From Candidatus Poseidoniia archaeon (lineage in GTDB: Archaea; Thermoplasmatota; Poseidoniia; MGIII; CG-Epi1), in NCBI GenBank assembly GCA_030754655.1, contig JASLZX010000003.1, forward strand, positions 15,449 through 79,448: a stretch of DNA of 64,000 nt, read 5' to 3'. Made by a program: the position numbers and the translations under genes. Shown piece by piece: positions 5,517 to 49,755 of the stretch. A model generated the notes under the pieces. It ran no database searches and was not told the DNA's origin. It was given only the letters and a program-made list of their open reading frames with translations. Numbering within the stretch: position 1 is the stretch's first letter; every line of letters starts with the position of its first letter.

Positions 5517-7234
5517 GCCAGTTCCGTCTCGACCAATAAGCGACGCAATTCGTCGGCCGGCTTGCCCAGCGCTTCGAGCGACGCCACCTTGCCCGCCAGC
5601 GCTTCCGGGTCGGCGGCTCCGCAGCCAAGTGCGCCGTCGAATGCTTCGCTGGCGCGTTGCGCATCGCCATTTTCGAGCGCGCTCCAGCCCAACGCCAGCC
5701 ACGCCTCGAGCCGCGACGGCGCGAGCGCCGTTGCGGCTTCGGCCGCAGCCTGCGCTTCGCGGCTGCGGTCGAGCGCGTGCAGGCAACCACAGCGCGCCAG
5801 CGCCAAATCTGGGTCGTCGAGCGACAGGTACACGAGCGCCGCTTCCGGCTCGCGCGAAGCAAGGTGCAGTCCCAGCTGGCACTTTATATTTTCATCGTCA
5901 AGAAATTCAGCCTGCAAATCGGCGAGTGTTTTGCGCGCAGCATCCCACTCCTGCGCGCGCGACAGAAGCAGTCGACCGGAGCGGGAGCCGGGTTGCAGCT
6001 CGAGCGCGTTTTCGATAAGCGACAGCGCCTGCTCGTTGCGGTCCAGTTCCAGCATCGACTCCGCCAGCCGGAAGCGCGCGCGCGCCGACTCGGGATGCGC
6101 GACCAGCGCGTTGGTGTATTGCCGCGCCGCCTCGTCCAACATCCCGGCGTTGACCAGGATTTTGCCTTTCTCCATCCAGTCCAGGTCGCGCATGCGGTTG
6201 CGCGCCTGATTGTCCATCGCGCGCACCGCCTCGTCGTAGCACTGCAGTGCGTGCCGGGTCTCGCCGCGCTCGCGGCTGGTGTCGCCCAGCGCGACCCAGC
6301 ACATGACGTGCTGACCGTCGGCCGCCAGGCCAAGATTCAGCGTGCGCCGTGCCTCATCGGGGCGGCCGAGCGCCAGCAGGCTGCGCGCCAGCGCCTCGTG
6401 GTAGTCGGGGTCCCCGTCCTCGAGCTCGAGCGCCGTCTCCAAGAACTCGAGACCCTCCTCGGGGCGGCCGAGCCGCGCCAGCGCGCGGCCTTTGGCCATC
6501 CAAGCGTAGTGAAATGTGGGATCCATTTCGAGCGCCTGCTCGTGGTATAGAATGGCCTCCTCGTAGCGGTCCAAGTGATCGAGTGCATTGCCGATGTTGT
6601 TGACGGCGATGACGTATTCCGGGTCGATATCGAGTGATTTCTGGTAGAACTCGATGGAGAGCTCGTATTCGCCCTGGTTATACTGGACGTTGGCGAGATT
6701 ATTCCACGCAATCTTGTCGCGTGGGTCCAGTTCTACGGCGCGCTGATAGTAATCCTTGGCGTCCGCCAGCCGCCCCGAGAGCTGCAGCGTGTAGCCGTAG
6801 TTGTACCACGCCACCGCGTAGGTGGGGTCGGCGCGCATCGCCTCGTCGTAGCAGCGCATCGCCTCGTTCCAGCGATCGAGCATGAAGTTGGCAAAGCCGC
6901 GGTTGTTCCACGCCGGCGCGTTGCGCGGCTCCAGCTCCAGCGCGCGGCCGTACGCCTCGACTGCCTGCGCGTAGCGCTCTAGACGCTGCAGCGCGTCGCC
7001 GCGACGCACATAGTAGCGCGCGATGTCGGGCGCCAACTCGCACGCCCGCTGGTAGGCGCGCAGTGCCCGGGCGGGGTTGCGGCGCGCCATCTCGGCCATA
7101 CCGATGCTGTTGTGGAGCGAAGGGTCCTCCGGCGCCAAGTCCGCCGCCCTGCGGAAGCAGGAAATCGCCTTGCGGAATTTCCTTTCGCGGACCAGCGCCT
7201 CGCCCTGTTCCACCAACTCCGCGACGTCAGGCAT
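5513..7234 (-). CDS. TPR-repeat protein
   Basis: Repeated A-W-xN-G / A-Y-xR-A-L TPR consensus throughout 573 aa. Confidence 0.75.
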   Translation of the reverse strand: MPDVAELVEQGEALVRERKFRKAISCFRRAADLAPEDPSLHNSIGMAEMARRNPARALRAYQRACELAPDIARYYVRRGDALQRLERYAQAVEAYGRALELEPRNAPAWNNRGFANFMLDRWNEAMRCYDEAMRADPTYAVAWYNYGYTLQLSGRLADAKDYYQRAVELDPRDKIAWNNLANVQYNQGEYELSIEFYQKSLDIDPEYVIAVNNIGNALDHLDRYEEAILYHEQALEMDPTFHYAWMAKGRALARLGRPEEGLEFLETALELEDGDPDYHEALARSLLALGRPDEARRTLNLGLAADGQHVMCWVALGDTSRERGETRHALQCYDEAVRAMDNQARNRMRDLDWMEKGKILVNAGMLDEAARQYTNALVAHPESARARFRLAESMLELDRNEQALSLIENALELQPGSRSGRLLLSRAQEWDAARKTLADLQAEFLDDENIKCQLGLHLASREPEAALVYLSLDDPDLALARCGCLHALDRSREAQAAAEAATALAPSRLEAWLALGWSALENGDAQRASEAFDGALGCGAADPEALAGKVASLEALGKPADELRRLLVETELA

Positions 7235-13408: not shown

Positions 13409-16400
13409 TCAGAGCGGGTTGCCGTCTTCGTTGCAGGGAACTTCTTCGCCCGAGTCGGGGTCGATGTAGTAGAAGGAACCGTCCTCGTCCTCGTAGATTT
13501 CGACCTCATACTCTTCTTCGTCGTCGCCTACTTCGTCGTCGTAGTCGTCAGCGAAGCCGAAGTCGTCGTCAGAGGAAACCGCGGCACCGCTAGCACTCAG
13601 GAGGTCCATCAGACTGGTCTCCTCCCGCGCCTCCTCGCGCGCAGTGCGGACAGACTCGATAGCCTCAATCTTACGCTGGGTTGACTCGTATGCCTTGGTA
13701 ATCTCGGTAAGCTTGGAGAACTGCTCATCGCGCTCCATCTTGAGCACGTACGCCAGCTGTTCCTCAATCTGCCCCAGTTCGGTGCGGGTGTCGACCAGTC
13801 TGGTCAGCGTACCGTGGAACCGCTCGGCGAGCAATTCCATGTCGGGGTCGGCCATGTCAAGCTCGAGCTGTTCCGCTGCCGCGGTTTCGGCTGCCTCGGC
13901 AGCCTCCAGTTCGGCTAGCCGCTCGGTGGCGGCAATCTGCTGGGCCTTGACCAGTATTTCGTTGAAGGCCGAAAGGTGGGCCTCCAGCTTGGTCGCGACG
14001 CGAGATGCGTCGTAAGCTGCTACCTCGAGCAGTTCCTCGCGACCCTTGGAGGTCTCAAGGCTCTGTTCGACTTCTGCCAGACGTGCTCTTTCTTGCTTGT
14101 TCATGCTTTCACCAGTAAATCCGCTCGTGCGGACGTTATACGCTGCGGCGGCCATTAGCAGACCCAAAACCAGTCCGCCCACCAGAACGATGAAGCTGCG
14201 GTTCCAGTTGTCTGCCACCATTACACTCTGGGCTTCCGCCACCACTACTTCCTGAGCCACAGTGGTAGTCACCGCACCAGAGTTGTCAACTGCGGTGACC
14301 TGCACCTGATAGGTGCCGGGCGCCGCATAGGCGTGCTTCAGGTTCAGCGTGCTCTGATCAGTCAGGTCACTGCCACTGAAGGAAATTTGCGAGCCATCGC
14401 CGAAGTCGACCACCAACATCGCGATGCTGCCGTCGCCATCGGTCGGGACTGCCAGGACAAACTCGACTGTGTGCTCCTCGACCACGCTGACGGTGTTGCC
14501 GTCAATCGTGATGCCCTCATCCACACTCACCGAGGGTGCCGGGACCAAGGGTGCGCTGTTAGCGGCAGTTACCGGCGCGCTAAAGCTCGTGACCTGTCCG
14601 AGGCTGTCGGTTGCGACTAACGAGATGGTGTAGTCGCCTGCCATATCGTAGGTGTGGTCCTGCGAGGCGCCGCCGTCAACAATGCTGGCTCCGTCACCGA
14701 AGTCCCAGTCAATCGTCAGTCCCGCTGCGGCGTCGCTCAGCGCAAAGATGTGCGCGGAGCCGGCCATGGTGCCGCCCGTGCTGAGCGACCAGCCGGAGAT
14801 GTCCTGCGGCAGGTTGGGGGTAATCGAGATGGTCTGCGAAGCGCCAGTACCGTCAATCGACGGCGTGACTGTGAAACCGGCGGAGCTCGCCGCGGTCGCG
14901 CCAGCCGGGACCATGACGGTCAACAGGACCGTCTGGAAACCGCTCTTGTCGATGCGGAAGCTGGTTGTCGAGAAACGCAGGTTGTCGTGGCCCGCAGTGA
15001 CGACTATGGTGTAGTCGGTCGCGACGCTGCCGGTATTGGTCACTGTAACAACCGTGGTCGCCGAAGTTCCGGGGTTGAGCTGGAAGCTGTCATCAGCCGC
15101 GCTCACGCCTGCGCTCCGCGCATCACTGGAGATGTCGATTGTCGCGCTTGCGCTGTCATCGTCAGTTGCAGTCGATATAGAGTAACTGCCACCAGCCGGA
15201 GTATCTTCGGGGACATTAATCCAGACGCGGAAGTCGAAGCTGGCGCCGGCTTCGAGTATGTCGGTGGAGGTGGTGTTCAGCACTGCCCAGCCGTTAGCCT
15301 CACTGTTGCCGCTGATACCAAAGGAGTAGGTTGCGTCACCGTTACCGGTGTTGGTGACGGTGCCGGAAATCTGGAAGGAGTCGCCCGGATACGCTGCGGA
15401 AACCGTGCCGAGCGTTATGCTCGAGCCAGTCACCAGCCCGGCGCTGCTGTCGGCCGAGTCGCTGTCGGAAGCGCCGCCGGTCGCGGTGAGCGTTACCGTG
15501 TCGCCCGCACCGTGCGCTGCGCCTGCGGGGACGTCGTGCGTGACCGTAACTAGCCGCACCTCGCCCATGCCGAGGCTCATCCCGCTGGAGGAAGCAGATG
15601 AGGACCAGCTTCCACTGGTTGAAATTACGAACGTGTTATCGTAGTTACCGGTGTTCTGCACCGTGAAGGTGTGGATCGTGGAACTGCCCGGTGCGCCTTC
15701 CTGCGTGCTGGAAACTGCGGTGACTGCGACGTCCTGCACTAGCCCGACTGAATAAATCATGCTGTGCGCATCGGTCGCGGTGCCGTCGTTCTGCGACGCG
15801 ATATCGACGTCAATCTGGTTCGGAACACCGTAGGCCAAGAAGGGGACGCTGAGCGTCAGGTCGAAGGTGGCTGAGCTGTCGTAGGCTACGTCAACCGTCG
15901 CCGGGAAGCTCAGGTCCCAGCTCGCGAAGTTGCTGGCACCGATGGTGTAGGTGTCATCGGCGTTGCCGCTGTTGGTAATCGTGAAGGTGATTGTGCGGTC
16001 GCCCGGCGCGCCCGAGGTATCTGCCGGATCGTCTAGGTCTGCGCCGCCGACATAGTCGACGAAGAAGCTCGCTGTCCCGGCGTCGCCGGTTGCGGGCGCA
16101 CCGACACTGTCGGTGGCACTGAAGGTAACAGTGCGAGTGCCACCACGGTCAATGAGGTCTAACAGGTCAAGCGTGGCTGAATAGGTACCATCACTGTTGT
16201 CGTTGAGCGTGAGGGTTCCATAGTGCTGGAGGTCGGCCGAAACTGTAAGTGAATCCCCATCGTCCTCGTTAATGTCACTGGCGCTGGCAGTGAAGGTGTA
16301 GGTGTCACCGGCACGTTCTACAGTCCCGTTGGCCGTGAAGGCCGGCGCGTCGTTGACCGCAATCGAGCCGCCCGAAAGCTGTGCGGCGTCGTTGGCACCA

Positions 16401-17884
16401 TTGTTGGCGTCGAAAGCCACGGAATGGGTGCCCCAAGCCATGGTGCCGGTGTAGGCATATTCGGCGCCAGCGGCGTCAGCCGGGCTCTCCGAGGCGTTGG
16501 TGCGTGAGAGCGAGAAGAAATTGCTGCCGACCGTCACGCTGATGGTTGAGGCGTTGGTGCCGTTGTACTCGTGGTAGCGGACCGAGAAGTTGAAGTTGTC
16601 GTTCTCGCCGCCGCTGGCTGGCGAAACTGCCGCGTCGGTCAGCCACGGAATATCGGTGCGGACCCAGACTGAGCCGGCGACCGCGTTGGAATCATCCATG
16701 CTGTCGTTCGAACTGGCAGCGAACACCGTCTTACCAGCTGCGAATACCTGGCTGTGCTCGTACTGCTTACCGTCGGTGTAGTCACCATCGTTTGGGTCGG
16801 AGGCGAACATCGGTACTGCGGTGCCGTCACAGCCATCGCTCAGGTCGTCGTCGCCGACGCAGAGCGTTATCGCACTGGGTGCCTGGTCGTTAGCGTCGGT
16901 ATAGGTGACGGTAACCGTGGCGGGGTCTACTGGTAGTGGTACCGTTGAGGGTGTTGCCGTAATAGAGCTCAGGACCGGTTCGTCATTAACGCGAGGGCCA
17001 TCGTAGGTATCGGAGGTTGCGTCGTCCTCCCCGTCAGAACTGGTGAAGTAGTAGGTGTGCATCCCGAGGCCAATATCTCCCGCTAGGGTGAAGGCGTACT
17101 CGTAATTCTCGCCATTGGTGTAATCACCATCGTTGCTGCTGGAGGAAGTCATTGGGTATCCGGTATCATCGACAAAGAGGAGTACCTCACTGGGAGCGTC
17201 GCCGTCAAGGTCGGTGTAGGTGACCTGGAAACCCACCGTGTCACTCGCGGAGATAGGCCAGTTGGCTTCTCCCGGGGAAACTTGGCCGTCCGTGAGAGTC
17301 GGGGCGCGGTTCTGCTGGACCAGCGGGCGGCTCAGGTCCCATGCTTCCTCGTCTCCGACCTGACACTCCTCCGTGCCATCGAGCCAGATACAGCTCATGC
17401 TGGCTATGTAGAAGGTGACGTCCCCATGGTAGTCTGAGGGTGCCCAAACAAACTCCCACGACAAAGATTCGTCTCCGTCATCTTCGGAGTTGCTCATGAT
17501 GTAGTCGTAACCATCCGAAGCGGTAACGAGGGTTATATCGCCCACCTCAATCGAGAAATTGCCGACTGAGTCGCCATTACCGTTGATAACCACCATCTCA
17601 AAACCGAACTTGTCGTGACCGCTGCCACTCACAGTTACGTCGATGTCTACGTCCTCGCCGGGCACGTACTCTGCAACGCTGAGCGTTACGTCCAGCGAAC
17701 TCTCACCATCGTTGGGATTAGCGTCGGTGTGGCATGACGTGCAGTCATTATCACCTGGCGCGCTGGAATAGCCTGGGTCAATATCTCCGCCCTGATGTCC
17801 CTGCGCATAACCTGCAGCGATGACGGCTATCACCGTCACAATCAGGATACCTGCCAATAGTTGTTCCGGCCGACGTGTCAGCAT
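13409..17884 (-). CDS. giant type-I membrane surface protein with multiple PKD/Ig-like domains, single TM, cytoplasmic coiled-coil and poly-acidic C-terminal tail
   Basis: N-terminal signal anchor (MLTRRPEQLLAGILIVTVIAVIAAG), PKD signatures (WDFGDG...HTY, VDFGDGS...HAY), TM LVGGLVLGLLMAAAAY, then heptad-like E/A/L-rich segment and DDDFGFADDYDDEVGDDEEEYEVEIYEDEDG tail. Confidence 0.8.
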   Translation of the reverse strand: MLTRRPEQLLAGILIVTVIAVIAAGYAQGHQGGDIDPGYSSAPGDNDCTSCHTDANPNDGESSLDVTLSVAEYVPGEDVDIDVTVSGSGHDKFGFEMVVINGNGDSVGNFSIEVGDITLVTASDGYDYIMSNSEDDGDESLSWEFVWAPSDYHGDVTFYIASMSCIWLDGTEECQVGDEEAWDLSRPLVQQNRAPTLTDGQVSPGEANWPISASDTVGFQVTYTDLDGDAPSEVLLFVDDTGYPMTSSSSNDGDYTNGENYEYAFTLAGDIGLGMHTYYFTSSDGEDDATSDTYDGPRVNDEPVLSSITATPSTVPLPVDPATVTVTYTDANDQAPSAITLCVGDDDLSDGCDGTAVPMFASDPNDGDYTDGKQYEHSQVFAAGKTVFAASSNDSMDDSNAVAGSVWVRTDIPWLTDAAVSPASGGENDNFNFSVRYHEYNGTNASTISVTVGSNFFSLSRTNASESPADAAGAEYAYTGTMAWGTHSVAFDANNGANDAAQLSGGSIAVNDAPAFTANGTVERAGDTYTFTASASDINEDDGDSLTVSADLQHYGTLTLNDNSDGTYSATLDLLDLIDRGGTRTVTFSATDSVGAPATGDAGTASFFVDYVGGADLDDPADTSGAPGDRTITFTITNSGNADDTYTIGASNFASWDLSFPATVDVAYDSSATFDLTLSVPFLAYGVPNQIDVDIASQNDGTATDAHSMIYSVGLVQDVAVTAVSSTQEGAPGSSTIHTFTVQNTGNYDNTFVISTSGSWSSSASSSGMSLGMGEVRLVTVTHDVPAGAAHGAGDTVTLTATGGASDSDSADSSAGLVTGSSITLGTVSAAYPGDSFQISGTVTNTGNGDATYSFGISGNSEANGWAVLNTTSTDILEAGASFDFRVWINVPEDTPAGGSYSISTATDDDSASATIDISSDARSAGVSAADDSFQLNPGTSATTVVTVTNTGSVATDYTIVVTAGHDNLRFSTTSFRIDKSGFQTVLLTVMVPAGATAASSAGFTVTPSIDGTGASQTISITPNLPQDISGWSLSTGGTMAGSAHIFALSDAAAGLTIDWDFGDGASIVDGGASQDHTYDMAGDYTISLVATDSLGQVTSFSAPVTAANSAPLVPAPSVSVDEGITIDGNTVSVVEEHTVEFVLAVPTDGDGSIAMLVVDFGDGSQISFSGSDLTDQSTLNLKHAYAAPGTYQVQVTAVDNSGAVTTTVAQEVVVAEAQSVMVADNWNRSFIVLVGGLVLGLLMAAAAYNVRTSGFTGESMNKQERARLAEVEQSLETSKGREELLEVAAYDASRVATKLEAHLSAFNEILVKAQQIAATERLAELEAAEAAETAAAEQLELDMADPDMELLAERFHGTLTRLVDTRTELGQIEEQLAYVLKMERDEQFSKLTEITKAYESTQRKIEAIESVRTAREEAREETSLMDLLSASGAAVSSDDDFGFADDYDDEVGDDEEEYEVEIYEDEDGSFYYIDPDSGEEVPCNEDGNPL

Positions 17885-17965
17885 ATTTACACCTTTTTTG
17901 CGTGAGACTGAAGTCCTCCGTAATGGGCGGACTGACCTCTCTCGTAGCGCCTTCATACCCAAGGA

Positions 17966-28438: not shown

Positions 28439-29695
28439 GTGCGATTCCTGCTGTTGGCGACGCTGCTGGGGCTGGCGCTGCTGGCGCTCGCGCCGCAGGC
28501 CGAGGCACTCGAACTGCTCCACAACTACTACGAGCTGCGCGACGACACCGAGGCGCTGGCGGCGCAGTACCCCGATATCGCGATTTACAGCGAGCATGGC
28601 AGCAGCACCGGACCACTCGGGCTCGCCATCTTTTCAGTCGACGTCACGCTGAACATCACCACGCTTTCCGAAGCGGAGCTAGCGGCGCTGCCGACCTTCT
28701 ACGTCGACGGCGCACACCACGGCAACGAGGGGATGTCGTCTGAGGCGGCGTTCCTGTTCCTGCAGGACGTACTCGGGCGATCAGCAGCCGACCCAGACTA
28801 CCTGGCAGGCAAGCGGCTGGTGGTGACACCCATCATAAACCCCGACGGCCACCTGCTGGACTGCCGCAACAACTGGAACAACGTCGACCTGAACCGAAAC
28901 TATCCCTGGATGTGGGGCGCCTACGGCACCAGCGACACCCGCGGCTCCTGTCCCGTTCCGGGCACCTACCGTGGACCGAGCGCCGGGAGTGAGGACGAGA
29001 CGCAAGACAACATGGCGCTGATGCGCAACCTGAATCTCTACGCCTACTTTTCAGGCCACACCGGCTCAAATGACATTGTGTTGCCGTGGAAAATTACCGG
29101 TGAAAACGCCGTGCCAATCAAAGACTGGGCACTCTACGAACGGTTCCTAAACGAATCGACCAATGTCTCGGGACTCTCCTATCGCGACCCGGGGGGCGCC
29201 GGTGAGTCGACAGCGTGGGGCTACGGCGCACGCGGCGCGGTGAGCGTGATTGTCGAAGTTACCACCCTGCAGTGGGTTCCCGTCGAGGATTCGACGCTGC
29301 GGCAGGAGCTGGCGAACGAGCTGCTAATGTATGACATGGCGTGGGAAAACCTGCTGAAACTGGGCGGCCGCCCGGTGGTCATCGGCACCGGCCCCGGCGA
29401 ACTCACGGTGCGTAACGACGGCTGGGGCGCCGCCTACAATCTCTCGGCCGGCGGCATAATCCTGCCGCGGCTCGAGCCGGGCGAGACTGCCACGGTGGAC
29501 TGGCATGACTCGCAGCTGCGCTACGAGCGCATCCTGCGCAACCCCGAGCGCGATGTGGACGCCGATGGGGTGGTGACGCTCGAAGTCGGCACGCCGCTTC
29601 CAGATATCCTGAACCAGCCGGTGCCTGCAGTCTCGCCATTAGCGGTGTTCGTGGTACTGGGGCTGGCGGCGCGGAGCCGGATTATCCGGGCTTGA
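28439..29695 (+). CDS. secreted M14-family zinc carboxypeptidase with C-terminal membrane anchor
   Basis: Signal peptide; HHGNE zinc-binding motif, NPDG, NRNYP motifs; C-terminal hydrophobic stretch plus RSRIIRA. Confidence 0.8.
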   Translation: MRFLLLATLLGLALLALAPQAEALELLHNYYELRDDTEALAAQYPDIAIYSEHGSSTGPLGLAIFSVDVTLNITTLSEAELAALPTFYVDGAHHGNEGMSSEAAFLFLQDVLGRSAADPDYLAGKRLVVTPIINPDGHLLDCRNNWNNVDLNRNYPWMWGAYGTSDTRGSCPVPGTYRGPSAGSEDETQDNMALMRNLNLYAYFSGHTGSNDIVLPWKITGENAVPIKDWALYERFLNESTNVSGLSYRDPGGAGESTAWGYGARGAVSVIVEVTTLQWVPVEDSTLRQELANELLMYDMAWENLLKLGGRPVVIGTGPGELTVRNDGWGAAYNLSAGGIILPRLEPGETATVDWHDSQLRYERILRNPERDVDADGVVTLEVGTPLPDILNQPVPAVSPLAVFVVLGLAARSRIIRA

Positions 29696-30503
29696 CAAGC
29701 AGGTATCTGTGATAATGCAAACTGCCTGAATGGAATCCTTCATACACTGGAGTTCCCCGGACACCTGCGAACGTCTCAAAACTTTTTCTGATTGATTTCG
29801 GGACGTTCTCCCTAATTTGCTCGATTTTCGCTTCATTTATCTCATCCAGTGCAGCTAGAACCTCTCTGGTAATCTCCTTTTTTGAAACCAGTTTAAAACC
29901 AGAATCAACGAATAGGGATTGAACTTTCTGCATGGTTTCTTCATCTCTGAAATCAGTCCAGCAGAAATGCCCGCCCGCTCGGAGGACACGATTAACCTCC
30001 CCTACAAAGGCTCTCATGTTTCCATAACAATGAGATGATTCGACATTGTAAACCACGTCAAAAGCCGAATCATTTATCGGTAATGATTCCGCATTACCCT
30101 CTATGAAGGAAAGATTTTCCTGTTCGGAATACCATTTTCGGGATAGTCTGACAGCTTCTTTGGAAAAATCAACTCCAACTAATGACTCGGGTTTGCAATA
30201 CTTCGCTATCCAGGAAGCACCCCCTCCTCTCCCGGAACCCACCTCAAGGACTTCTCTCCCCTGCAAATCAATGTCTCTGATATTCATGTGATAGAGCTGG
30301 ATGAACAGTCGATTTGGTTCGTCTTCCCTGGACAGTTTTGGACCCTTGTCATCCTTGTACCCATAGTTCATAAAACGAAAATCAGACCTGCGATGTGCTT
30401 TAGCCAACCTCTGATACCACCATTTCCACATCCAATTGCGAACACGGCCTGGTGAAACTCTAAGAATTACCGAGAATAGCCGAGCTGGGAACCCCATTGC
30501 CAT
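29682..30503 (-). CDS. class-I SAM-dependent methyltransferase on a sharply low-GC (about 42%) single-gene island
   Basis: VLEVGSGRGGGASW motif I, acidic motif II (VGVDFS), FMNYGY N-region; GC drops from about 67% to about 42% exactly over this gene. Confidence 0.75.
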   Translation of the reverse strand: MAMGFPARLFSVILRVSPGRVRNWMWKWWYQRLAKAHRRSDFRFMNYGYKDDKGPKLSREDEPNRLFIQLYHMNIRDIDLQGREVLEVGSGRGGGASWIAKYCKPESLVGVDFSKEAVRLSRKWYSEQENLSFIEGNAESLPINDSAFDVVYNVESSHCYGNMRAFVGEVNRVLRAGGHFCWTDFRDEETMQKVQSLFVDSGFKLVSKKEITREVLAALDEINEAKIEQIRENVPKSIRKSFETFAGVRGTPVYEGFHSGSLHYHRYLLVKPG

Positions 30504-30584
30504 TTCTGGGCCTGACTAGTGGGTTGGGATTTATCTGTTTGGGAAACCGGCACCCTTTTTGACCCCCCTCACTGGCGCCGGCGC

Positions 30585-31370
30585 ATGCCTATCGACATCC
30601 GCGATGAGGGCGCGGTGCGGATTATCACTCTCAACCGGCCCGCGAAGCTGAACGCGCTCACCCTCGCGATGGCGACCGACATCTGCAACGCCGTGGAGTC
30701 CGCGGCGGCTGACCCATCAGTGCGCTGCCTGCTGCTGATCGGCAGCGGCCGCGCCTTCTCGAGCGGCGGCGACGTCAACGAGATGGGCGAGCACCTGCCG
30801 CGCGCGGGCGACCTGTTCTACCAGCTGACCGACCAGCTGCACGACACGGTCAGCGCGATGCTAACGATGCGAAAGCCGGTCGTCACCGCCATCAACGGCA
30901 TCGTCGCCGGCGGTGCTATCGGCATGGCGCTAGCGGGTGACGTGCGCATCGCGGCCGAGTCGGCACAGCTGCTCTCGGCGCACTTCAAACGAGGCTTCGT
31001 CCCGGCCGGGGGCGCGACCTACCTGCTGCCACGGCTCATCGGCCTCAGCCGCACGCAGGCGCTCTTCTTCGGCGAGCGGACCCTCACCAGCGCCGAGATG
31101 CGCGAGTGGGGGCTGGTGCACCACCTAGTCCCCGACGGGGAGCTAGTGGAATTCGCGATGACTGAGGCGCAGCGGCTCGCCGCCGGGCCGACGCAGGCAA
31201 TGGGCGAAACCAAACGGCTGCTGGCGGCGGCCGACAACCTCACCGCCGAAGAGCAGCTCGAGCTGGAGAGCGAGCGCAACCGCGATTCTGGCAACACCGG
31301 CGACGCGGTCGAGGGCATCACCGCCTTCCTCGAGAAGCGCGAGCCGGAGTTCGGCCGCTCAGAAAATTAA
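30585..31370 (+). CDS. enoyl-CoA hydratase/isomerase (crotonase family)
   Basis: ITLNRPAKLNAL, GSGRAFSSGGDV and crotonase fold. Confidence 0.8.
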   Translation: MPIDIRDEGAVRIITLNRPAKLNALTLAMATDICNAVESAAADPSVRCLLLIGSGRAFSSGGDVNEMGEHLPRAGDLFYQLTDQLHDTVSAMLTMRKPVVTAINGIVAGGAIGMALAGDVRIAAESAQLLSAHFKRGFVPAGGATYLLPRLIGLSRTQALFFGERTLTSAEMREWGLVHHLVPDGELVEFAMTEAQRLAAGPTQAMGETKRLLAAADNLTAEEQLELESERNRDSGNTGDAVEGITAFLEKREPEFGRSEN

Positions 31371-31384
31371 ACTTCTATAGTCGC

Positions 31385-31460
31385 TGGCGGGCCCGGGGGG
31401 ATTTGAACCCCCGTATCTGGGTCCGAAGCCCAGCAGGATTCCGAACTACCTCACGGGCCC
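31385..31460 (-). tRNA. tRNA-Arg(TCG) with encoded CCA
   Basis: Reverse complement GGGCCCG..CTGGG-CTTCGGA-CCCAG..GGGGG-TTCAAAT-CCCCC-CGGGCCC-G-CCA; perfect acceptor, anticodon and T stems. Confidence 0.8.
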
Positions 31461-34633: not shown

Positions 34634-37600
34634 ATGATGATTTTCATGCGCAAGACCCTCAAATATTCGTTCGCCGTACTAGTGTTTGCATTCCTGCTTT
34701 CACTGGCTGCCTCCGAGGCTTCCGGTGAAGTGGACCTGACGATTACCTCCTTGGACTACACTAATGACTTCGATACCGGAGATCCTGTTACTATCGTCCA
34801 GAGCGGGAAGGATGCTGACACTGTATACAAGTATAATTTTTACGACGATGACAACGATGACTGCGATGAACAGAGGTGTCTCCCCGAGAATTGGTATGCG
34901 AAGAATTTTGACGACGCAATCTGGAGTTCAGGAGCCGCACCCTTCGGCAATAATGACCAGGCCGGCGCCAGTCCGGGCACGATATGGCAAACAGAGGAGG
35001 ATCTGAATGACCACATCGTAATTCGCCATCACTTTACTTACAGTAATGAGTATGATGCAATCAGTGCTACCCTGAACCTGGCCTACAATAACTACTATGT
35101 CGCCTACCTGAACGGGAACCTTATTCGAGACTGCTATTCTTACCAAAACAATAATAATTGTTACCAAGGCGACACTGCATACTGGAACAATGAACTAACC
35201 TATAACGGAGGCTCCCAGTCAGGGCCTAATCAAGATTGGCTAGTCGAAGGTGACAACGTACTTGCCATACTAGGAAGAGACAGCACTTGGGGTGGGGACC
35301 CTAATCAGTGGCTTGATGTCGAGTTCGTGGTCAACGTCCAGTCCTGGAGGGAAAAACCGATTATCCTCGGTGATGACGTGTGGCTGAGGGTGATTACTTC
35401 CAACGTAGGAAACGAAACCGCTGAGAACTTCAACGTCACGCTGGCGGTCGAGGGTGAGGAGCTGGGGAATGCTACCATAACGGAACTGGCACCTAATGCT
35501 ACGGCTGAAAGTGTGTTCTACTGGACTCCGGAGGCGCTCGGAGACTTTAATCTTGTGGCTTTTGCTGATGCTGGGCAAGATGTTGGAGAAAGCGATGAGG
35601 ACAACAATACCCTGAATCGCACAATACACATTGGGTTCTATGCGTACAATATTGCTGTGGAATCAAACCATGTTGTAGGAAATGCTACAGAGATTTTCAG
35701 GTACAATCTAACTGTCACTAACGAAGGCGACGTGGAAGACAATTTCACCCTCTCAGCCTCAGGTATTTTCTACAATTGGGATTGGACCCTTACGCCCAAC
35801 GTACTTCACCTGCAACCCGGAGGGAGCGGGAATGCGACTCTTGAAATAGTTCCGGACAGAGAGACATTGGCTGGGAATTACTCCGTGTTCATGAGTGCCA
35901 GGTCTCAGTACTATAGTGAATTCAGAGAGAACGTAGTCCTGAGTGGCCGGGATAACGAGACAGAATGGTGGTGGGCCCATTCCAATAGCAGTAACACGCG
36001 ACTCTACTATTGCACGGACAATGATGAACCCGACGACCCAGATTATGAATGCGATATTAGCTGGACCGAACTAGACTTCGACTATGATGACAACTGGACC
36101 CTTGACCCGGCACCCTTCGGAGATACCGACATAGGCAATGTAGACAACAACACGGTCTGGCAAGGCAACAGTTACGCCTACTTCCGCCATATATTCACTA
36201 TCGATAATATTTCGGCTTACGAAGGGGGCAGCCTGAGCCTGAATACTGCGGCAAACAACTACGGAACCTACTACCTGAACAGCCAGATAGTGTTCAATGA
36301 CATGCGGCAGGGTCAGGGCCACACCGCGAATTACTGGAACGATGAAACCCTGTTTGGACCCGAACTCTTGCAGGAAGGCGAAAATATCCTGGCATCAGTA
36401 GTCCGGGAAACTGGAAACACCCAGTGGTTTGATGAGGAAGTCGTGGCTGTTTTCTCCCAATCCGCAGCCTGGGATTTCGTTCCGCTACCACTAGAACTGG
36501 AAATGGAGATACTGCCGACCTATAATTTCTCGCTCTCGGCCCCCATTAGCAACAAGCAGATTCCGGACGACACTAACTACACCTTTGAAGTCTGGATTAC
36601 CAATCTAGGAAACATCGGAGATACCTATGAGATGGTAGTCACACTAAACGACACCTACAACTTTACAATCCTTAACTACACCACTACTGAAATGCACAGC
36701 GTTGTTGGAGAAGGTGCAATAGGTTACATTAATGTCACCATGCGCGACCTTATCGAGGAAGACGCGCGTGGCGGTTTCAATGTTACTGTAATTTCGCGCA
36801 ACTCGACCGAACAACTCACTAAATGGATTGAGCTGACTGCAATGCTCTATATCGTGCCTGACACACTGCGTCCTGTTACGGAGGCTATAACAGATCCACT
36901 CGTCAACTCGACCTCGTTCCAGGTAGGGTGGGAAGTAGCCGAATGGTATCGCCTCGACGATGTGCTCGGCAACGACACCTTGGTGGTGACCGTCGAATAC
37001 CGGCGCGACAACGGCAGCGGCAGCTGGGAGGAGTGGCAAGTGTGGCAGGTCTTCACGGCCGAGGACGAGGACAATCCGCTCGGCAGCGGGAGCGGAACCT
37101 TCTCGCTGGGCGAGGACGGTCGCAGCTTCCAGTTCCGGGCAACCGGCCTCGACGATGACGGGCTGTTGGAGGACAAGACGGGACGCAATGACACCGAGAC
37201 GCTGGTCGACACAACCCCGCCAACGGTCGCCGTTTCCAGCGACCCAGCTGGCGCGCTGCTCAGCACCAACTACCTCGAGCTGAGCTGGGAGAGCAGCGCC
37301 AGCGACCTTGCGGGCTACGACCTGCAACATTCGTTTGACGGCGGAGCGTGGGAAACGCTGCTGGCCGACTCGCTCGCGACGCGCTACGACTACTACGTCA
37401 CGGCCGACGGCAGCCACGCCTTCCGCGTCATCGCGAGCGATGACGCGGGCAACCGTGACGTGCCCGACACGCCCCAAATCAGCATGGTCATCGACACCGC
37501 AGCCCCGACGGGGAGGCTCGCGCCGCTGGAGCCGCTGACCGGCGCGCTAGCGGTGACGTTGCTGCCATCGCAGGATAACGCCAGCAGCTACAACCTGAGC

Positions 37601-45371: not shown

Positions 45372-46556
45372 TCAGCCGATAGTACCAGGACTGATGACAG
45401 ATGTGGCGATTCCCATCACTTCGAAGACCAGCCAGCCGATAAAGAGCAACATCGAGGAACGGTTGAACGCCGAGTAGAGCTTGCCAGTGGCCATGAAACC
45501 GGCCGCCATGCCGTTGCCAATGCTCTGGACAATTATGCTGTAGAGGAATATGGTCGAAATCCAGACTTCGTTCAGGTTGCGCACCTGCAGGTTACCGATG
45601 GACATACCCTCTCCGCCGGTGGCAGAGGCGGAATCGGCAATCGCCGGGACGAAAGTGCTGGCCAAGACGAGGATAATAATCAGGTAGACCATAAACGAAA
45701 CGTATACCACCATCATATAGCTGGTAACTTCCTGCGCTCGCTCGGTCTCGAGCGCCTTGATTTCCCTGGCGTCATAAGAGGCGGCGAGCAGGATGTCCGA
45801 AATGCGGCCTCCCGCGCGGTTGGCCTCATCGACCATGCGGACCGCCCGCGACACGATGGGCGACCGGACCCGTTCGGTAAACATCCCCAGCACTTCACTG
45901 AAGGAGATACCCCACGAAATCTGGGTTGACATCTTGTGTACTTCGTCGTTGAGGTTGCCATATTCGCCCCGCGCCAGCGTCTGGATAGCGACGGTCATGC
46001 TGAGACCGCCCTTCCAGTACTCGGCAAGGTCGCGCAGGAAGTCGGGGAATTTCTCCTCAACCCGCGTCCGGAGCTTGTCCTCACGCCAGCCCCAGATGCC
46101 ATAAGGCAGCATCAGCGCAATCAGTGCAAAAATGTAGTAGTCAAGGGTCGAAATTTCAGGATAGTATCGATACCAGGTTGTAGCTTCTACATCCTCGTCA
46201 ATACCGTTAATCAACGGGTCAGCGTCACGACTCTCGTTCTTGGCAATCGAGGGGAGGCCATACATGTAGGGCGTAATCGTGAAGGGGCCATCGTTCATGG
46301 CCTCCGGATTGTCGAACTGCGAATCACCGTCGAAATCGGTGACGACCGTTGTCAGGTCGGCCTGGTGATTCAACTGCCCCAGCGCGATGAACGCGCCGCC
46401 CATCATCAGCGAGAGGAAGACGACGACATAGATCGTAATGTCAGTCTTGCCCTCCTTCACCTCGATCCACTTCAGCGCCATGCGGTAGGTCATCCAGCGC
46501 CGCTTCTTGCCGGTCCGCTCATCGCGGTAGACCCGTTTCTCGAGATTACTTGCCAT
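45372..46556 (-). CDS. TadC/FlaJ-like type II secretion F-domain membrane protein
   Basis: T2SSF-like cytoplasmic domain (LSMTVAIQTLARGEYGNL) between TM helices. Confidence 0.7.
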   Translation of the reverse strand: MASNLEKRVYRDERTGKKRRWMTYRMALKWIEVKEGKTDITIYVVVFLSLMMGGAFIALGQLNHQADLTTVVTDFDGDSQFDNPEAMNDGPFTITPYMYGLPSIAKNESRDADPLINGIDEDVEATTWYRYYPEISTLDYYIFALIALMLPYGIWGWREDKLRTRVEEKFPDFLRDLAEYWKGGLSMTVAIQTLARGEYGNLNDEVHKMSTQISWGISFSEVLGMFTERVRSPIVSRAVRMVDEANRAGGRISDILLAASYDAREIKALETERAQEVTSYMMVVYVSFMVYLIIILVLASTFVPAIADSASATGGEGMSIGNLQVRNLNEVWISTIFLYSIIVQSIGNGMAAGFMATGKLYSAFNRSSMLLFIGWLVFEVMGIATSVISPGTIG

Positions 46557-47497
46557 TAATCAATTGCGACCTCATTGCTCAGTGCGAGGAAAATATAGGC
46601 GAAGAAAATCTGGATTATCGGGAACATCAGGAAGACCATCATGTAGAGGTGCTCTTCCTCCAGTTTCATCCCGGACCCGGAAACCCAGAAGGTGATCACG
46701 GCCATAATCATCGCGAAAATTGGAAGTGCCACCGCCATCACCACATACGCTTCCGCAAAGAGTGCCATCTGCTGGATGACACTCTTGACATGCACCCGGT
46801 TGGCCTGCGCGTAGTATTCTGCCCGGTTCAGGAAGTAGAGCTTCAGGTTACCGCCCGAGGTAAGCGTGCCGACAATTCCCTGCAAGAACTCGGCAAATCG
46901 TTCCGAGGGCGACCGTTCGACGGCCTCCTTGAGCGTCGTCACCAAGTCACGAGCCATGAACTCAACAGAGTGGTAAACCCAAGCCGCATCCTTCGAAATC
47001 TCACCGTAAATATCCTCACTACGAGCGAGCGATTTGAAAATCATCGCCGGCGTTGCATTAGCCGCCGCCATCGCTGCTGTGTAGCTGGCGGCGAAGGGCA
47101 GCTTGCGGTCCATGTCCGTGGCGCGCGAGCCAACTCTCAGCCCGGGCTCGAGCCAGTTCACCATCGCTATCAGCAGCGGCAGTACGATAACCAGCACCAG
47201 TGCTAGGATAGCCTGTATGAATTCCGAGACGATGATCGGCTCACCGTCTGGACCAGTCATTTGCGCTAGGAATGGAACGCCGACGACGATGAAAGCAAAC
47301 ACCAGCGCCAGCCCAGCGATGAAAGTAGCGAAAACCTGCATTGCGGCGTGGGCAACGTAGCCTTCGGGCAGCAGCGGAATGCGCGCCTTCACGAGCTGTT
47401 GCTTGAGCCCGAAGGAATTCTTGGTCAGCAAGCGACCCAGCCAGCCGAAAAGGAGCAGGCTGAGTGACTGCAGGCCGCTTAGAACCACCGGTGCCAC
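46556..47497 (-). CDS. TadB/FlaJ-like type II secretion F-domain membrane protein
   Basis: Second T2SSF-like domain protein adjacent to the first; split platform as in bacterial TadB/TadC. Confidence 0.7.
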   Translation of the reverse strand: MAPVVLSGLQSLSLLLFGWLGRLLTKNSFGLKQQLVKARIPLLPEGYVAHAAMQVFATFIAGLALVFAFIVVGVPFLAQMTGPDGEPIIVSEFIQAILALVLVIVLPLLIAMVNWLEPGLRVGSRATDMDRKLPFAASYTAAMAAANATPAMIFKSLARSEDIYGEISKDAAWVYHSVEFMARDLVTTLKEAVERSPSERFAEFLQGIVGTLTSGGNLKLYFLNRAEYYAQANRVHVKSVIQQMALFAEAYVVMAVALPIFAMIMAVITFWVSGSGMKLEEEHLYMMVFLMFPIIQIFFAYIFLALSNEVAID

Positions 47498-49755
47498 CAG
47501 CGCGGATTGGCCGAGTGCTCAACGCGCTTCGCCAGATTGCTCTGTAGATTGGTCAGCGCATTGGCCTGCCGGGCCTCTTCCTTAGCCGCTTCCTTAGCCT
47601 GCTTGTCTGGACTGGAGGAAAGCTTGACCTGCTTGGCTTCGGCCTTGGCACGCTTCGTTAGCTCGCGGTTGCACGACTTCAACAGTCGTCCCGCCTCACG
47701 TACTGAGAGACTGGATACGTCACCGATACCAAGCTGCGTCGCAGCGGGTGTAAGCTGCCGTAGCGGAGCATAGCGCGCCTGCGCCTTCAGCATATCACGC
47801 TCGAGATAGGCGTCTGACTTGGCGCGGCGAGTCGCTTCCTTCGCCTCGAGCTTGGCGCGCTTGGCCTCGTCGTCAGTATCAGCCGCCCGAGTATCGGCCT
47901 TCGCGCGAGCCGCCGCCTCCTTAGCGAACCGATTCTGGAACTTCTCCTGCACCCCGGCCGGGAACTCGGTGATATCGACACCCTCATCGGCTGCGCCAGC
48001 ACCGCTCAGGTCAAGGTCACGCTCCTTCACCTTGCGGCGGCGCTTGCGACCGCCCACCTGCAGGTCAGCATAGACCCGGCGCATCACGTCCTCGGGGTGG
48101 ACGTAGTACTCGGCCACCACCCGGGCGAAGTCGCGGTAGTCACGGATGCTCTTCTTGAGGCACCACTCGATGACCAGCTGTCGCCGCTTGATTTCGTCCA
48201 TGATTTCGACGCGGTTCAGGTTGGCCTTCAACATGATTTTCTCAAGCACGTAGGACTTGCCGGTGAAGACAAACTCATCGGTGGCGTTGTCCCAGCGGAA
48301 TGCCTCGTTGGTCAGCAGCTCGTGCGAATGGGGGTCAATGCCGATAATTTCGACGATGTTCTTGTTGCGCCGCACGCGCTTCCCACCGACGCGGGTCTGA
48401 ATCTGGATTGAAATCGCGTCAAGCGACGGAATCAGCACGCGCGGAATCTCAATCGGCTTATTCTCAAGCCGGTGCACCAGGCTCTGGATTGAATCGGCGT
48501 GGAAGGTGGAATAGGTAGTGTGCCCAGTCGCCATGGCCTGGAACAGCACGTACGCCTCTGCACCACGGATTTCTCCCACAATGATGTATTCCGGCCGCTC
48601 ACGCAACGCTGCCCGCAGCAGGTCGTACATGTCGACCACTCCTGCCGCCTTGGCGCCCGCCATAGCGGACTCACCACCGAAACCCTCACGGGTACAGCCA
48701 GGAATCCAGTTGGGATGCGGCAGGTTCAGCTCACGCGTCTCCTCAATACTCACAATTTTGTGCTGCCACGGCAGGAAGAGTGAGCAGGCATTGAGGGAAG
48801 TGGTCTTGCCGGAAGCAGTACCACCGACAAACAGCATCGACATGCCGTACTGCATCGCGAGCCAGAAGAAGGCAATCTGCATTGAGGAAAAGGTCTTGAA
48901 CTCGAGTAGGTCCACCGGCGTGAACGGTTCGTCACGGAAACGCCGGATGGTAAAGGTCGAACCTTTCGTGGAGACCTCACGGCCCAGCGTCATGACGATA
49001 CGCGAACCATCCATCAGTGTCGCGTCGAGCAGTGGTTCAGCAATCGAGATGTGCTTACCGCAGCGCTGTGCCATGCGGATGATGTATCGCTCCAGCTCAA
49101 ACTCGTCCGTCCAGAGGACATTGGTCCGCAGCGACTCGAAGCGCCGGTGGTAGACGAACACCTCGACGCCGGGGCCGTCGCAAGAAACGTCCTCGATATT
49201 CGGGTCGTGCATCATGGTATCAATCAGGCCGTAGCCCACCAAGTCACGCTCGATGTAGTAGTGGATTTTCTCGCGGTTGCTCTTGCGACTCGGAAGCCGG
49301 TATGCGTCGAGGATGTCGTCAACCGCCTGATGCAGGAACTCGTCCTGCCCCTCTTCGAGGGTTTCGCGGCTGATATTCAGCGCCCGCTGGAGCACATCCT
49401 GGATGGTCTGCAGGTCCTGTTTCTCCTGTTCGGACGCTTTTGGTTCGACGACATAGTAGAAGCGAGAGTAATCACGCTTGTCGAACAGGATGCGGACGTA
49501 GGAGAAGGGGGGCCTTACGGGGTAGGTATCAAGTTCCTCGAAATCCTCGCCCAACTCGATGTCGTCCATGACGAGGTCATGGATGACGCCCGCCTTCTCG
49601 GCCGCCTTGCGGGACTGATCCTGCTGCTTGCGCTCCTTGCGCAAGCGCCGTTTTTCACGCCATGAAAGCTGGCTCTCGTCGACCGTTTCCTCAGTCGGCG
49701 ATAGCATACCGAGAGGGGCTGATTCTGTGTCAATTGAGTCGCCGGCAGCTCCCAT
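47479..49755 (-). CDS. FlaI/TadA (CpaF)-family secretion ATPase with about 220-aa C-terminal K/A/E/R-rich low-complexity extension
   Basis: Walker A GGTASGKTT, Asp/His boxes, core of about 540 aa; extension KRRRKVKERD...AKEAAKEEARQ... reads as coiled-coil/low complexity. Confidence 0.85.
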   Translation of the reverse strand: MGAAGDSIDTESAPLGMLSPTEETVDESQLSWREKRRLRKERKQQDQSRKAAEKAGVIHDLVMDDIELGEDFEELDTYPVRPPFSYVRILFDKRDYSRFYYVVEPKASEQEKQDLQTIQDVLQRALNISRETLEEGQDEFLHQAVDDILDAYRLPSRKSNREKIHYYIERDLVGYGLIDTMMHDPNIEDVSCDGPGVEVFVYHRRFESLRTNVLWTDEFELERYIIRMAQRCGKHISIAEPLLDATLMDGSRIVMTLGREVSTKGSTFTIRRFRDEPFTPVDLLEFKTFSSMQIAFFWLAMQYGMSMLFVGGTASGKTTSLNACSLFLPWQHKIVSIEETRELNLPHPNWIPGCTREGFGGESAMAGAKAAGVVDMYDLLRAALRERPEYIIVGEIRGAEAYVLFQAMATGHTTYSTFHADSIQSLVHRLENKPIEIPRVLIPSLDAISIQIQTRVGGKRVRRNKNIVEIIGIDPHSHELLTNEAFRWDNATDEFVFTGKSYVLEKIMLKANLNRVEIMDEIKRRQLVIEWCLKKSIRDYRDFARVVAEYYVHPEDVMRRVYADLQVGGRKRRRKVKERDLDLSGAGAADEGVDITEFPAGVQEKFQNRFAKEAAARAKADTRAADTDDEAKRAKLEAKEATRRAKSDAYLERDMLKAQARYAPLRQLTPAATQLGIGDVSSLSVREAGRLLKSCNRELTKRAKAEAKQVKLSSSPDKQAKEAAKEEARQANALTNLQSNLAKRVEHSANPRWWHRWF

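Follow-up and report, generated by a model that had tools for sequence, protein, structure and literature searches.

A low-GC methyltransferase gene at an operon junction of high-GC marine archaea: probably an old single-gene cassette

A low-GC gene between a carboxypeptidase and an enoyl-CoA hydratase

The DNA analysed is a stretch of 64,000 nucleotides of contig JASLZX010000003.1 (assembly GCA_030754655.1, Candidatus Poseidoniia archaeon), hereafter the window, and its subject is a single low-GC gene for an S-adenosylmethionine (SAM)-dependent methyltransferase (MT). MT lies on the strand opposite to its two neighbours, the genes for an M14-family zinc carboxypeptidase (M14) and an enoyl-CoA hydratase (ECH) (Table 1). 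An earlier reading made from the letters of the window (the sequence-only reading) had reported a 14-nt overlap with M14 and a gap of about 80 nt on the other side; indeed, the convergent MT and M14 genes overlap by exactly 14 nt, and 81 nt separate MT from the ECH start (ATG 30585, a start common to the homologues). Genes for exosome subunits, Pcc1, ribosomal protein L37ae, proteasome alpha and SBDS are found nearby, indicating that the host is an archaeon, and it is a high-GC Marine-Group-III (MGIII)-like member of the Poseidoniia.

MT has a GC content of 0.450 and the adjoining 2-kb stretches have 0.670 and 0.674; the drop from about 67% noted before thus stands, whereas the 42% given for the gene is slightly low. 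When 822-bp windows were taken across the 64 kb (mean GC 0.642, standard deviation (SD) 0.05), the MT tract was the minimum (0.451), about 3.8 SD under the mean, and only one other region, at 34.5-36.2 kb, falls below 0.50. Recalculation therefore gave a non-uniform profile, not the uniform GC that would have spoken against an island. In 200-nt windows the transitions are sharp, at ~29600-29800 and ~30400-30600, with values from 0.40 to 0.485 within MT. GC at the three codon positions is 0.52/0.39/0.44 in MT, and third-position GC (GC3) is 0.81-0.90 in seven neighbouring genes. This composition is atypical in the way expected of a horizontally acquired island. None of the signatures of mobility (integrase, transposase, flanking direct repeats, tRNA target) was found at the MT locus, no integrase or transposase is present among the immediate neighbours, and no repeats occur at the boundaries of the inserted segment. 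The description of a one-gene island with sharp borders and without repeats or integrase was thus borne out.

At least 24 contigs from independent assemblies encode the identical MT protein. One gene context accounts for 23 of them, and on the one further contig shown M14 and ECH flank MT as well, so that an assembly chimera is ruled out. The same M14-MT-ECH order was found in independent metagenome-assembled genomes, and in five of these the sequence was followed through both junctions nucleotide by nucleotide.

With the M14 protein as query, 12 loci were obtained from species-representative genomes; they are labelled as Poseidoniia, 'MGIII-9', 'uncultured marine group III euryarchaeote' or 'Cayman_92', and the last of these names agrees with MG-III bins that Li et al. 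2015 (PMC4660358) described from the deep sea. Occupancy of the slot between M14 and ECH was surveyed in 12 genome loci and in 59 metagenome loci fetched with the ECH protein. In the low- and intermediate-GC clade (locus GC 0.34-0.46), M14 abuts ECH with nothing between in ~45 loci, so that MT is absent from the orthologous site in these relatives, as expected of an island. Base-by-base reading of eight low-GC junctions showed an ATGA overlap of M14 stop and ECH start in every one, making the two genes a translationally coupled pair in these relatives; this junction in distant relatives supports the earlier view that MT was inserted between the carboxypeptidase and ECH. MT was found on the opposite strand in 9/9 loci of the high-GC clade (0.63-0.66). 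In the mid-GC clade (0.53-0.56), MT occupies two loci (L017 and L036), and a gene for a 670-aa lipoprotein-like protein occupies four (L018, L019, L037 and L038).

This second occupant encodes a protein, hereafter ELW, in which ELWxxDGT repeats (TIGR04534, 382 bits) are combined with a coiled coil and a lipoprotein-like signal. Its gene lies on the same strand as MT and has a GC3 of 0.49, against 0.67-0.72 in its own flanks. The flanks of MT- and ELW-bearing mid-GC genomes are 94-99% identical, and homology breaks at the same two points in all those compared; MT and ELW are presumably alternatives swapped by homologous recombination in the flanking genes. No MT copy outside the M14|ECH context was found among the contigs carrying the exact protein.

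The ends of the swappable cassette were taken from blastn alignments of L017 (MT) with L018 and L038 (ELW), which stop at 7229 and resume at 8101 of L017, corresponding to 29673 and 30545 of the window. The right border is fuzzy by ~40 nt, with the short motifs CTGACT and TTGGGAT shared in the promoter region. The cassette provides the last six codons and the stop of M14 (29675-29695, SRIIRA before the stop), where M14 in ELW-bearing genomes ends in RQY. Integration targeted to the tRNA-Arg gene was considered and rejected, as this gene is 840 bp off and the native ECH gene intervenes, and the search for target duplications or end motifs shared by the MT and ELW cassettes returned only chance matches of 10-30 nt.

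Candidate promoter elements were picked out by eye, with general archaeal promoter architecture as a guide. The hexamer ATAAAT upstream of MT may be an archaeal TATA box, and the MT transcript would be leaderless or have a very short leader, because no Shine-Dalgarno motif could be read in the sequence upstream of MT. The 40 nt preceding ECH are absent from the low-GC relatives and hold a further TATA-like element, CTTTTTGA, which may serve as an ECH promoter.

Age of the insertion and third-position changes

Identity between the flanks of the window and those of L013 is 89-94%, indicating that MT is common to several species and not to strains alone. Synonymous divergence (dS) of MT from three other high-GC genomes is 0.08, 0.11 and 0.20, and that of the flanks in the same comparisons is ~0.04-0.10, 0.12-0.24 and 0.19-0.25 when M14 is left out; M14 itself is higher (0.30-0.39), partly due to a divergent block at 28600-29200. 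With a ratio of non-synonymous to synonymous divergence (dN/dS) of 0.07-0.12, MT is under purifying selection. Across ten genomes, the third-position distances of MT and ECH are correlated (r = 0.84 within the high-GC clade, 0.98 overall), the raw third-position rate of MT being about half that of ECH. The nearest MT homologue outside the clade, in a search of 5.8 billion clustered proteins, is 73% identical. Thus, the insertion is older than the radiation of the high-GC clade and, most simply, also older than the split between the mid- and high-GC clades. Between these two clades dS is 0.48 for MT and 0.8-1.1 for the flanks, a halving that fits a lower substitution flux in MT.

The GC3 of MT is 0.44-0.47 in all ten genomes, whether the host GC3 is ~0.9 or ~0.7. 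Third-position changes within the high-GC clade were polarised with the mid-GC sequences as outgroup, using seven flanking genes for comparison. Changes from AT to GC (W>S) were found at 13 of 144 W sites in MT and at 123 of 184 in the flanks (Fisher p = 3e-28), and are thus ~7-fold rarer per site in MT. In contrast, the rates of GC-to-AT (S>W) change were equal (25/126 in MT and 224/1434 in the flanks, Fisher p = 0.2), indicating equal genealogical depth. Fixed differences with S in the high-GC and W in the mid-GC clade, relative to the reverse, number 17:13 in MT and 346:27 in the flanks (p = 5e-7), and the implied equilibrium GC3 is ~0.3 for MT and ~0.8 for the flanks. MT thus lacks the GC-raising flux seen in its neighbours. 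This exemption may arise from rarer recombination in a flexible slot, which would reduce biased gene conversion, from a relaxation of compositional selection, or from selection that favours an AT-rich coding sequence.

A more far-reaching proposal, advanced only tentatively here, is that the MT tract is exempt from the force that holds the genome GC-rich and sat out the shift in GC3 from 0.7 to 0.9, its strongest version being that MT is a native orthologue left behind. If true, the high GC of deep-sea MGIII would be kept by fixation bias (selection or GC-biased gene conversion) and not by mutation, and the locus would be a built-in control, the bias being able to skip a fixed, expressed and selected gene. 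An old, non-ameliorating archaeal island with a deficit in AT-to-GC changes only bears on the debate about how high GC is maintained. In bacteria, accessory genes are generally AT-richer than core genes (PMC5303225), and transferred genes of Pseudomonas aeruginosa show no systematic amelioration (PMC8461475).

Protein family, homologues and possible function

The MT protein matches only generic class I domains in Pfam, above the gathering threshold and over residues ~82-208 (Methyltransf_11/25/31: PF08241, 72.6 bits with a cut-off of 21.2; PF13649, 64.7; PF13847, 59.4). Tryptophan-rich basic helices are found at residues 7-35, the FMNYGY block at 44-49 and the SAM motif LEVGSGRGGGA at 85-95. 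An alignment of 50 homologues shares the FRFMNYG block and the SAM motif, with E87, G89, G91 and G93 invariant in the latter and W26, W28, W29 and Y30 invariant in the N-terminus. Public gene calls (P0121-P0127, P0149) often begin MT at an internal methionine, giving proteins of 229 or 249 aa that drop a conserved tryptophan-rich N-terminus of 44 aa. The AlphaFold model (pLDDT 86.9) shows alternating strands and helices, and Foldseek gave a probability of 1.00 to many class I methyltransferases. Its matches in the PDB (TM 0.6-0.7, 13-22% identity) are natural-product, polyketide O-, isoprenoid C- and phosphoethanolamine N-methyltransferases, among them AtmM/RebM, TleD, MitM, the StiD O-methyltransferase and the farnesyl and geranyl pyrophosphate (FPP/GPP) C-methyltransferases. 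By sequence, no solved structure of a close relative was found, only generic class I methyltransferases. With motif I in the sequence and the seven-strand alpha/beta fold in the predicted model, MT is assigned to the class I SAM-dependent methyltransferases, and Pfam, NCBIfam and Foldseek agree with the earlier description of an FMNYGY-bearing enzyme of the small-molecule or lipid type, distinct from DNA methyltransferases.

Two NCBIfam models match over nearly their full length: NF045823 (Rv2952, phthiotriol/phenolphthiotriol dimycocerosates O-methyltransferase) with 224.2 bits (E = 1.5e-66, residues 22-271 against 5-255 of 256 model positions), below its cut-off of 300, and NF045825 (Mtf2) with 197.9 bits (residues 27-271 against 2-247 of 248), far below its cut-off of 400, the fatty-acid function of Mtf2 being taken from the model name alone. 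An exhaustive HMMER scan returned 661 clusters (50% identity) at E < 1e-30. Scores of 215-260 bits against NF045823 are also reached by ten family members with 39-48% identity to the window protein, which places MT in a broad, mostly uncharacterised Rv2952/Mtf2-like family and makes it an equivalog of neither. Characterised members of this family methylate hydroxyls on long-chain lipids. The homology with Rv2952 of M. tuberculosis extends over the full length, and a class I SAM fold with an N-terminal helical extension is common to both; transfer of a methyl group to a hydroxyl on a hydrophobic substrate is presumably shared. Nevertheless, MT differs from Rv2952 in scoring below the cut-off, in its archaeal host and in the lack of adjacent genes of the phthiocerol dimycocerosate (PDIM) pathway. 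In PDIM synthesis a reductase acts before the methylase, an order that resembles the translational linkage, in low-GC homologues, of MT to a short-chain dehydrogenase/reductase (SDR) gene. Loss of Rv2952, an O-methyltransferase, leaves unmethylated phthiotriol dimycocerosate (PMC3169546).

Methyltransferase homologues 62-73% identical to MT are very abundant in low-GC (0.36-0.44) marine archaeal contigs, where they occur in two conserved contexts. One, AhpC-MT-AsnC-enolase, holds a group of 278/279 aa labelled 'Euryarchaeota archaeon'. The other, RNA polymerase-L7Ae-transketolase-MT-SDR-(alpha/beta hydrolase)-(AhpC)-(4HBT thioesterase), holds a group of 270-273 aa that is 66-73% identical to MT. 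In the L010 context the stop of the homologue and the start of the SDR gene share 4 nt, and in the Marine-Group-II-type context there is a 13-nt overlap between the AhpC gene and the start of the homologue. A gene for an AhpC/Redoxin-family peroxiredoxin was observed beside the homologue in both contexts (L004, L007-L012, L025-L030, L090), and a 470-aa open reading frame (ORF) without Pfam match, overlapping the MT stop, lies between MT and SDR in one sub-lineage of the transketolase context. These arrangements suggest that the homologues and their SDR and AhpC neighbours belong to one module, conserved among marine Poseidoniia and of uncharacterised lipid- or redox-related function, and the gene overlaps point to a possible pathway shared with a reductase and a peroxiredoxin. 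MT itself may O-methylate a hydroxylated lipid, or a hydrophobic molecule of that sort, at the membrane interface, the site of action being suggested by the amphipathic, tryptophan-rich N-terminus. Abundant and conserved in marine Poseidoniia beside SDR, thioesterase and peroxiredoxin genes, the MT clade is a candidate for lipid chemistry. The annotation value is ordinary, that of another uncharacterised methyltransferase in an uncultured marine archaeon.

A DNA- or RNA-modifying enzyme of a restriction or defence island was also considered, together with an assembly or binning chimera. Lone low-GC genes are typical of defence islands, and PADLOC returned a match to mad2 with 53 bits. This match is partial, covering residues 81-181 in the SAM core only, whereas the full-length matches are to lipid O-methyltransferase models and the structural neighbours are small-molecule methyltransferases. 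No DNA methyltransferase family is among the Pfam and NCBIfam matches, and no partner nuclease or specificity gene was found near MT, its neighbours being housekeeping genes. A defence or DNA methyltransferase was thus rejected and, with independent assemblies in agreement and the junctions read in five of them, the probability left to artefact or defence together is virtually negligible.

Origin of the cassette, known parallels and surrounding genes

In a neighbour-joining tree, the cassette copies (window, L013 and L017) form one clade, indicating a single origin, and 174 of 200 bootstraps place the entire transketolase-context clade as its sister group. The search for homologues recovered a lipid O-methyltransferase family, one of the kinds named in the sequence-only reading, and no donor closer than 73% identity. 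No distant lineage acted as donor, since the sister group of MT is the gene carried on the chromosomes of marine archaea that have low GC and belong to the same class, and the source is either a low-GC relative or the lineage's own ancestral copy. The topology fits vertical descent with relocation, on condition that the transketolase-context contigs are low-GC MGIII, as well as an ancient transfer whose donor was a low-GC relative, either unsampled or on the stem. L025, of the transketolase context (GC 0.44), has a tetranucleotide correlation of r = 0.83 with MGIII-like loci of GC 0.43-0.46, equal to the within-group value, and the tetranucleotide link between the contexts is suggestive for L025 only. 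Codon-position GC is 0.45-0.48/0.36-0.37/0.24-0.34 in the low-GC homologues and somewhat higher in the cassette (see above). The top 120 transketolase homologues are all at least 77% identical and low-GC, and are named only 'Euryarchaeota/Methanobacteriota archaeon'; among the top 120 MT homologues, none stood out by amino-acid composition as a GC-rich-encoded paralogue.

On balance, MT is probably an old single-gene cassette that was acquired in the ancestor of the mid- and high-GC clades and has been inherited vertically without amelioration. Some 0.87 kb of low-GC DNA would have landed on the ATGA overlap of the M14-ECH operon in this ancestor, bringing one gene and, it appears, its own TATA box, replacing the last few M14 codons and parting ECH, which now has a short upstream region of its own. 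The source would be a low-GC relative or the lineage's own copy; in the low-GC sister group the gene lies beside transketolase and is co-transcribed with an SDR gene. Since then, MT would have been inherited with its neighbours and fixed under purifying selection in the high-GC clade, remaining one of two alternative cassettes in the mid-GC sister species, and its low GC would persist through exemption from the fixation bias that raises GC elsewhere in the genome. Ancient transfer is modestly preferred over relocation since ELW, the other occupant of the slot, is low-GC too.

Several points weigh against this account. The phylogeny was built by neighbour-joining from 272 columns and not by maximum likelihood, and the taxonomy of the transketolase-context contigs is drawn only from tetranucleotide similarity. 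An inter-clade dS that is about half that of the flanks also fits a somewhat later transfer between the clades. The lower-GC outgroup may inflate the W>S counts of the flanks, a 7-fold gap being implausible by that route. MT stands alone here, without the SDR and AhpC neighbours of its homologues, and the promoter elements, the leaderless transcript, the location at the membrane and the lipid nature of the substrate are predicted.

The recent acquisition of a tailoring enzyme by this genome, with low GC as donor signature, had been put forward as a candidate explanation by the sequence-only reading. The strongly atypical GC and codon usage, the sharp borders and the empty locus in low-GC relatives are what such an event would leave. 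Nevertheless, the presence of MT at the same site in 9/9 high-GC loci (flank identity 89-98%) and in part of a mid-GC sister species, a dS equal to that of the flanks with correlated divergences, equal per-site S>W rates and a closest outside homologue of only 73% identity make it exceedingly improbable, and the presence of MT with similar composition in all relatives, which that reading had named as evidence against itself, holds for the close ones. Low GC is thus not to be equated with recent transfer at this locus, easy as the inference is. Hardly more credible is a circulating cassette, re-imported or swept across species from a low-GC flexible pool. The MT/ELW polymorphism with identical break points in one mid-GC species, an MT third-position divergence of about half that of ECH in every comparison and an inter-clade amino-acid identity (93%) above that of most flanks would agree with it. 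However, the divergence of MT correlates tightly with that of the flanks, every copy found among the contigs with the exact protein lies in the M14|ECH context, and sweeps would depress both types of change and not W>S alone, whereas S>W rates are equal.

A rather unlikely reading, carrying more weight than the foregoing two, is that MT is the lineage's own orthologue of the transketolase-linked gene, which was relocated to the M14|ECH junction and missed the rise in genomic GC from ~40-45% to 55-65%. The cassette clade is sister to, and not nested in, the transketolase-context clade, which mirrors the pattern of the host genes M14 and ECH, for which low-GC lineages are 78-79% identical to one another and 60-68% to the window. 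The L025 signature matches that of the MGIII-like loci, no donor closer than 73% is present in the 5.8 billion proteins, and exemption from the host GC shift has been shown for the step from mid to high GC. Against this, a non-homologous relocation would be needed together with a gene-specific exemption throughout the GC rise, the taxonomic link of the transketolase-context contigs is weak, and the low GC3 of ELW suggests a slot fed by a low-GC pool.

The cassette is of a kind already known, a flexible-genome islet or non-ameliorated acquired gene, and is only mildly unusual in its measured, one-sided lack of amelioration and its slot at an operon junction. As in flexible genomic islets, alternative unrelated low-GC cassettes, one with a surface protein, occupy the same position in conspecific genomes without mobility genes. 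In contrast to those islets, MT is a single gene placed exactly on an ATGA junction, fixed across a multi-species clade of an archaeal host, and the missing amelioration was measured directly here as a W>S deficit only. Like integron gene cassettes, the units carry one gene and are swapped at a fixed site; unlike integrons, the slot has no integrase, attC-like repeats or shared boundary motif, is not an array, and each MT or ELW cassette has its own promoter-like element. A coupled operon junction has thus turned into a cassette site with two unrelated occupants and no recombinase.

Table 1. Positions of the features in the window and, for ELW and the 470-aa ORF, in the loci named
Feature	Sequence	Position	Strand	Remarks
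M14 zinc carboxypeptidase gene	window	28439..29695	+	418 aa
Swappable cassette	window	~29674..30544	unstranded	871 bp, GC 0.455; ends where MT/ELW conspecific homology breaks
MT ORF	window	29682..30503	minus	ATG start, 273 aa
TATA-like hexamer ATAAAT	window	30529..30534	minus	26-31 nt upstream of MT ATG, inside cassette
ECH upstream region	window	30545..30584	+	40 nt, common to MT and ELW genomes
TATA-like CTTTTTGA	window	30555-30562	+	-30 to -23 of ECH ATG; putative promoter element
ECH gene	window	30585..31370	+	261 aa; ancestral operon partner of M14
tRNA-Arg (anticodon TCG)	window	31385-31460	minus	14 nt past ECH stop
ELW gene	L018	2507-4519		
ELW gene	L019	7233-8465		
ELW gene	L037	20-2014		
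ELW gene	L038	2399-4408		
470-aa ORF	L090	5708-7120		
470-aa ORF	L091	5708-7120		
470-aa ORF	L092	3818-5230		

The genes close around MT are those for a PrsW protease, an SDR, M14, ECH and tRNA-Arg, two genes of unknown function, and those for a HAD hydrolase and an MFS transporter. Within M14, the block at 28600-29200 is 75-90% identical to all six other high-GC relatives, while both sides are 95-99% identical, and GC falls to 0.545 at 29000-29199 inside it; the block looks like a recombination import or a hypervariable segment, separate from the cassette.

Apart from MT, GC falls below 50% in the window only within the gene for a 1327-aa CARDB-domain surface protein (34634..38617, + strand), whose N-terminal two-thirds (34634 to ~36900) have a GC of 0.46-0.51 and a GC3 of 0.56, against 0.65-0.68 and 0.855 in the C-terminal third. 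The switch near 36900 is sharp and falls inside the gene, which looks like a mosaic or one with a replaced exposed domain. Milder dips (GC 0.53-0.60) at 13409-17962 and 45372-49755, both on the minus strand, fall where a 1517-aa PKD/Ig-domain surface protein has its N-terminal end and on T2SSF/T2SSE-type genes (archaellum/pilus assembly). Lower GC in the host genome thus seems to accompany cell-surface genes.

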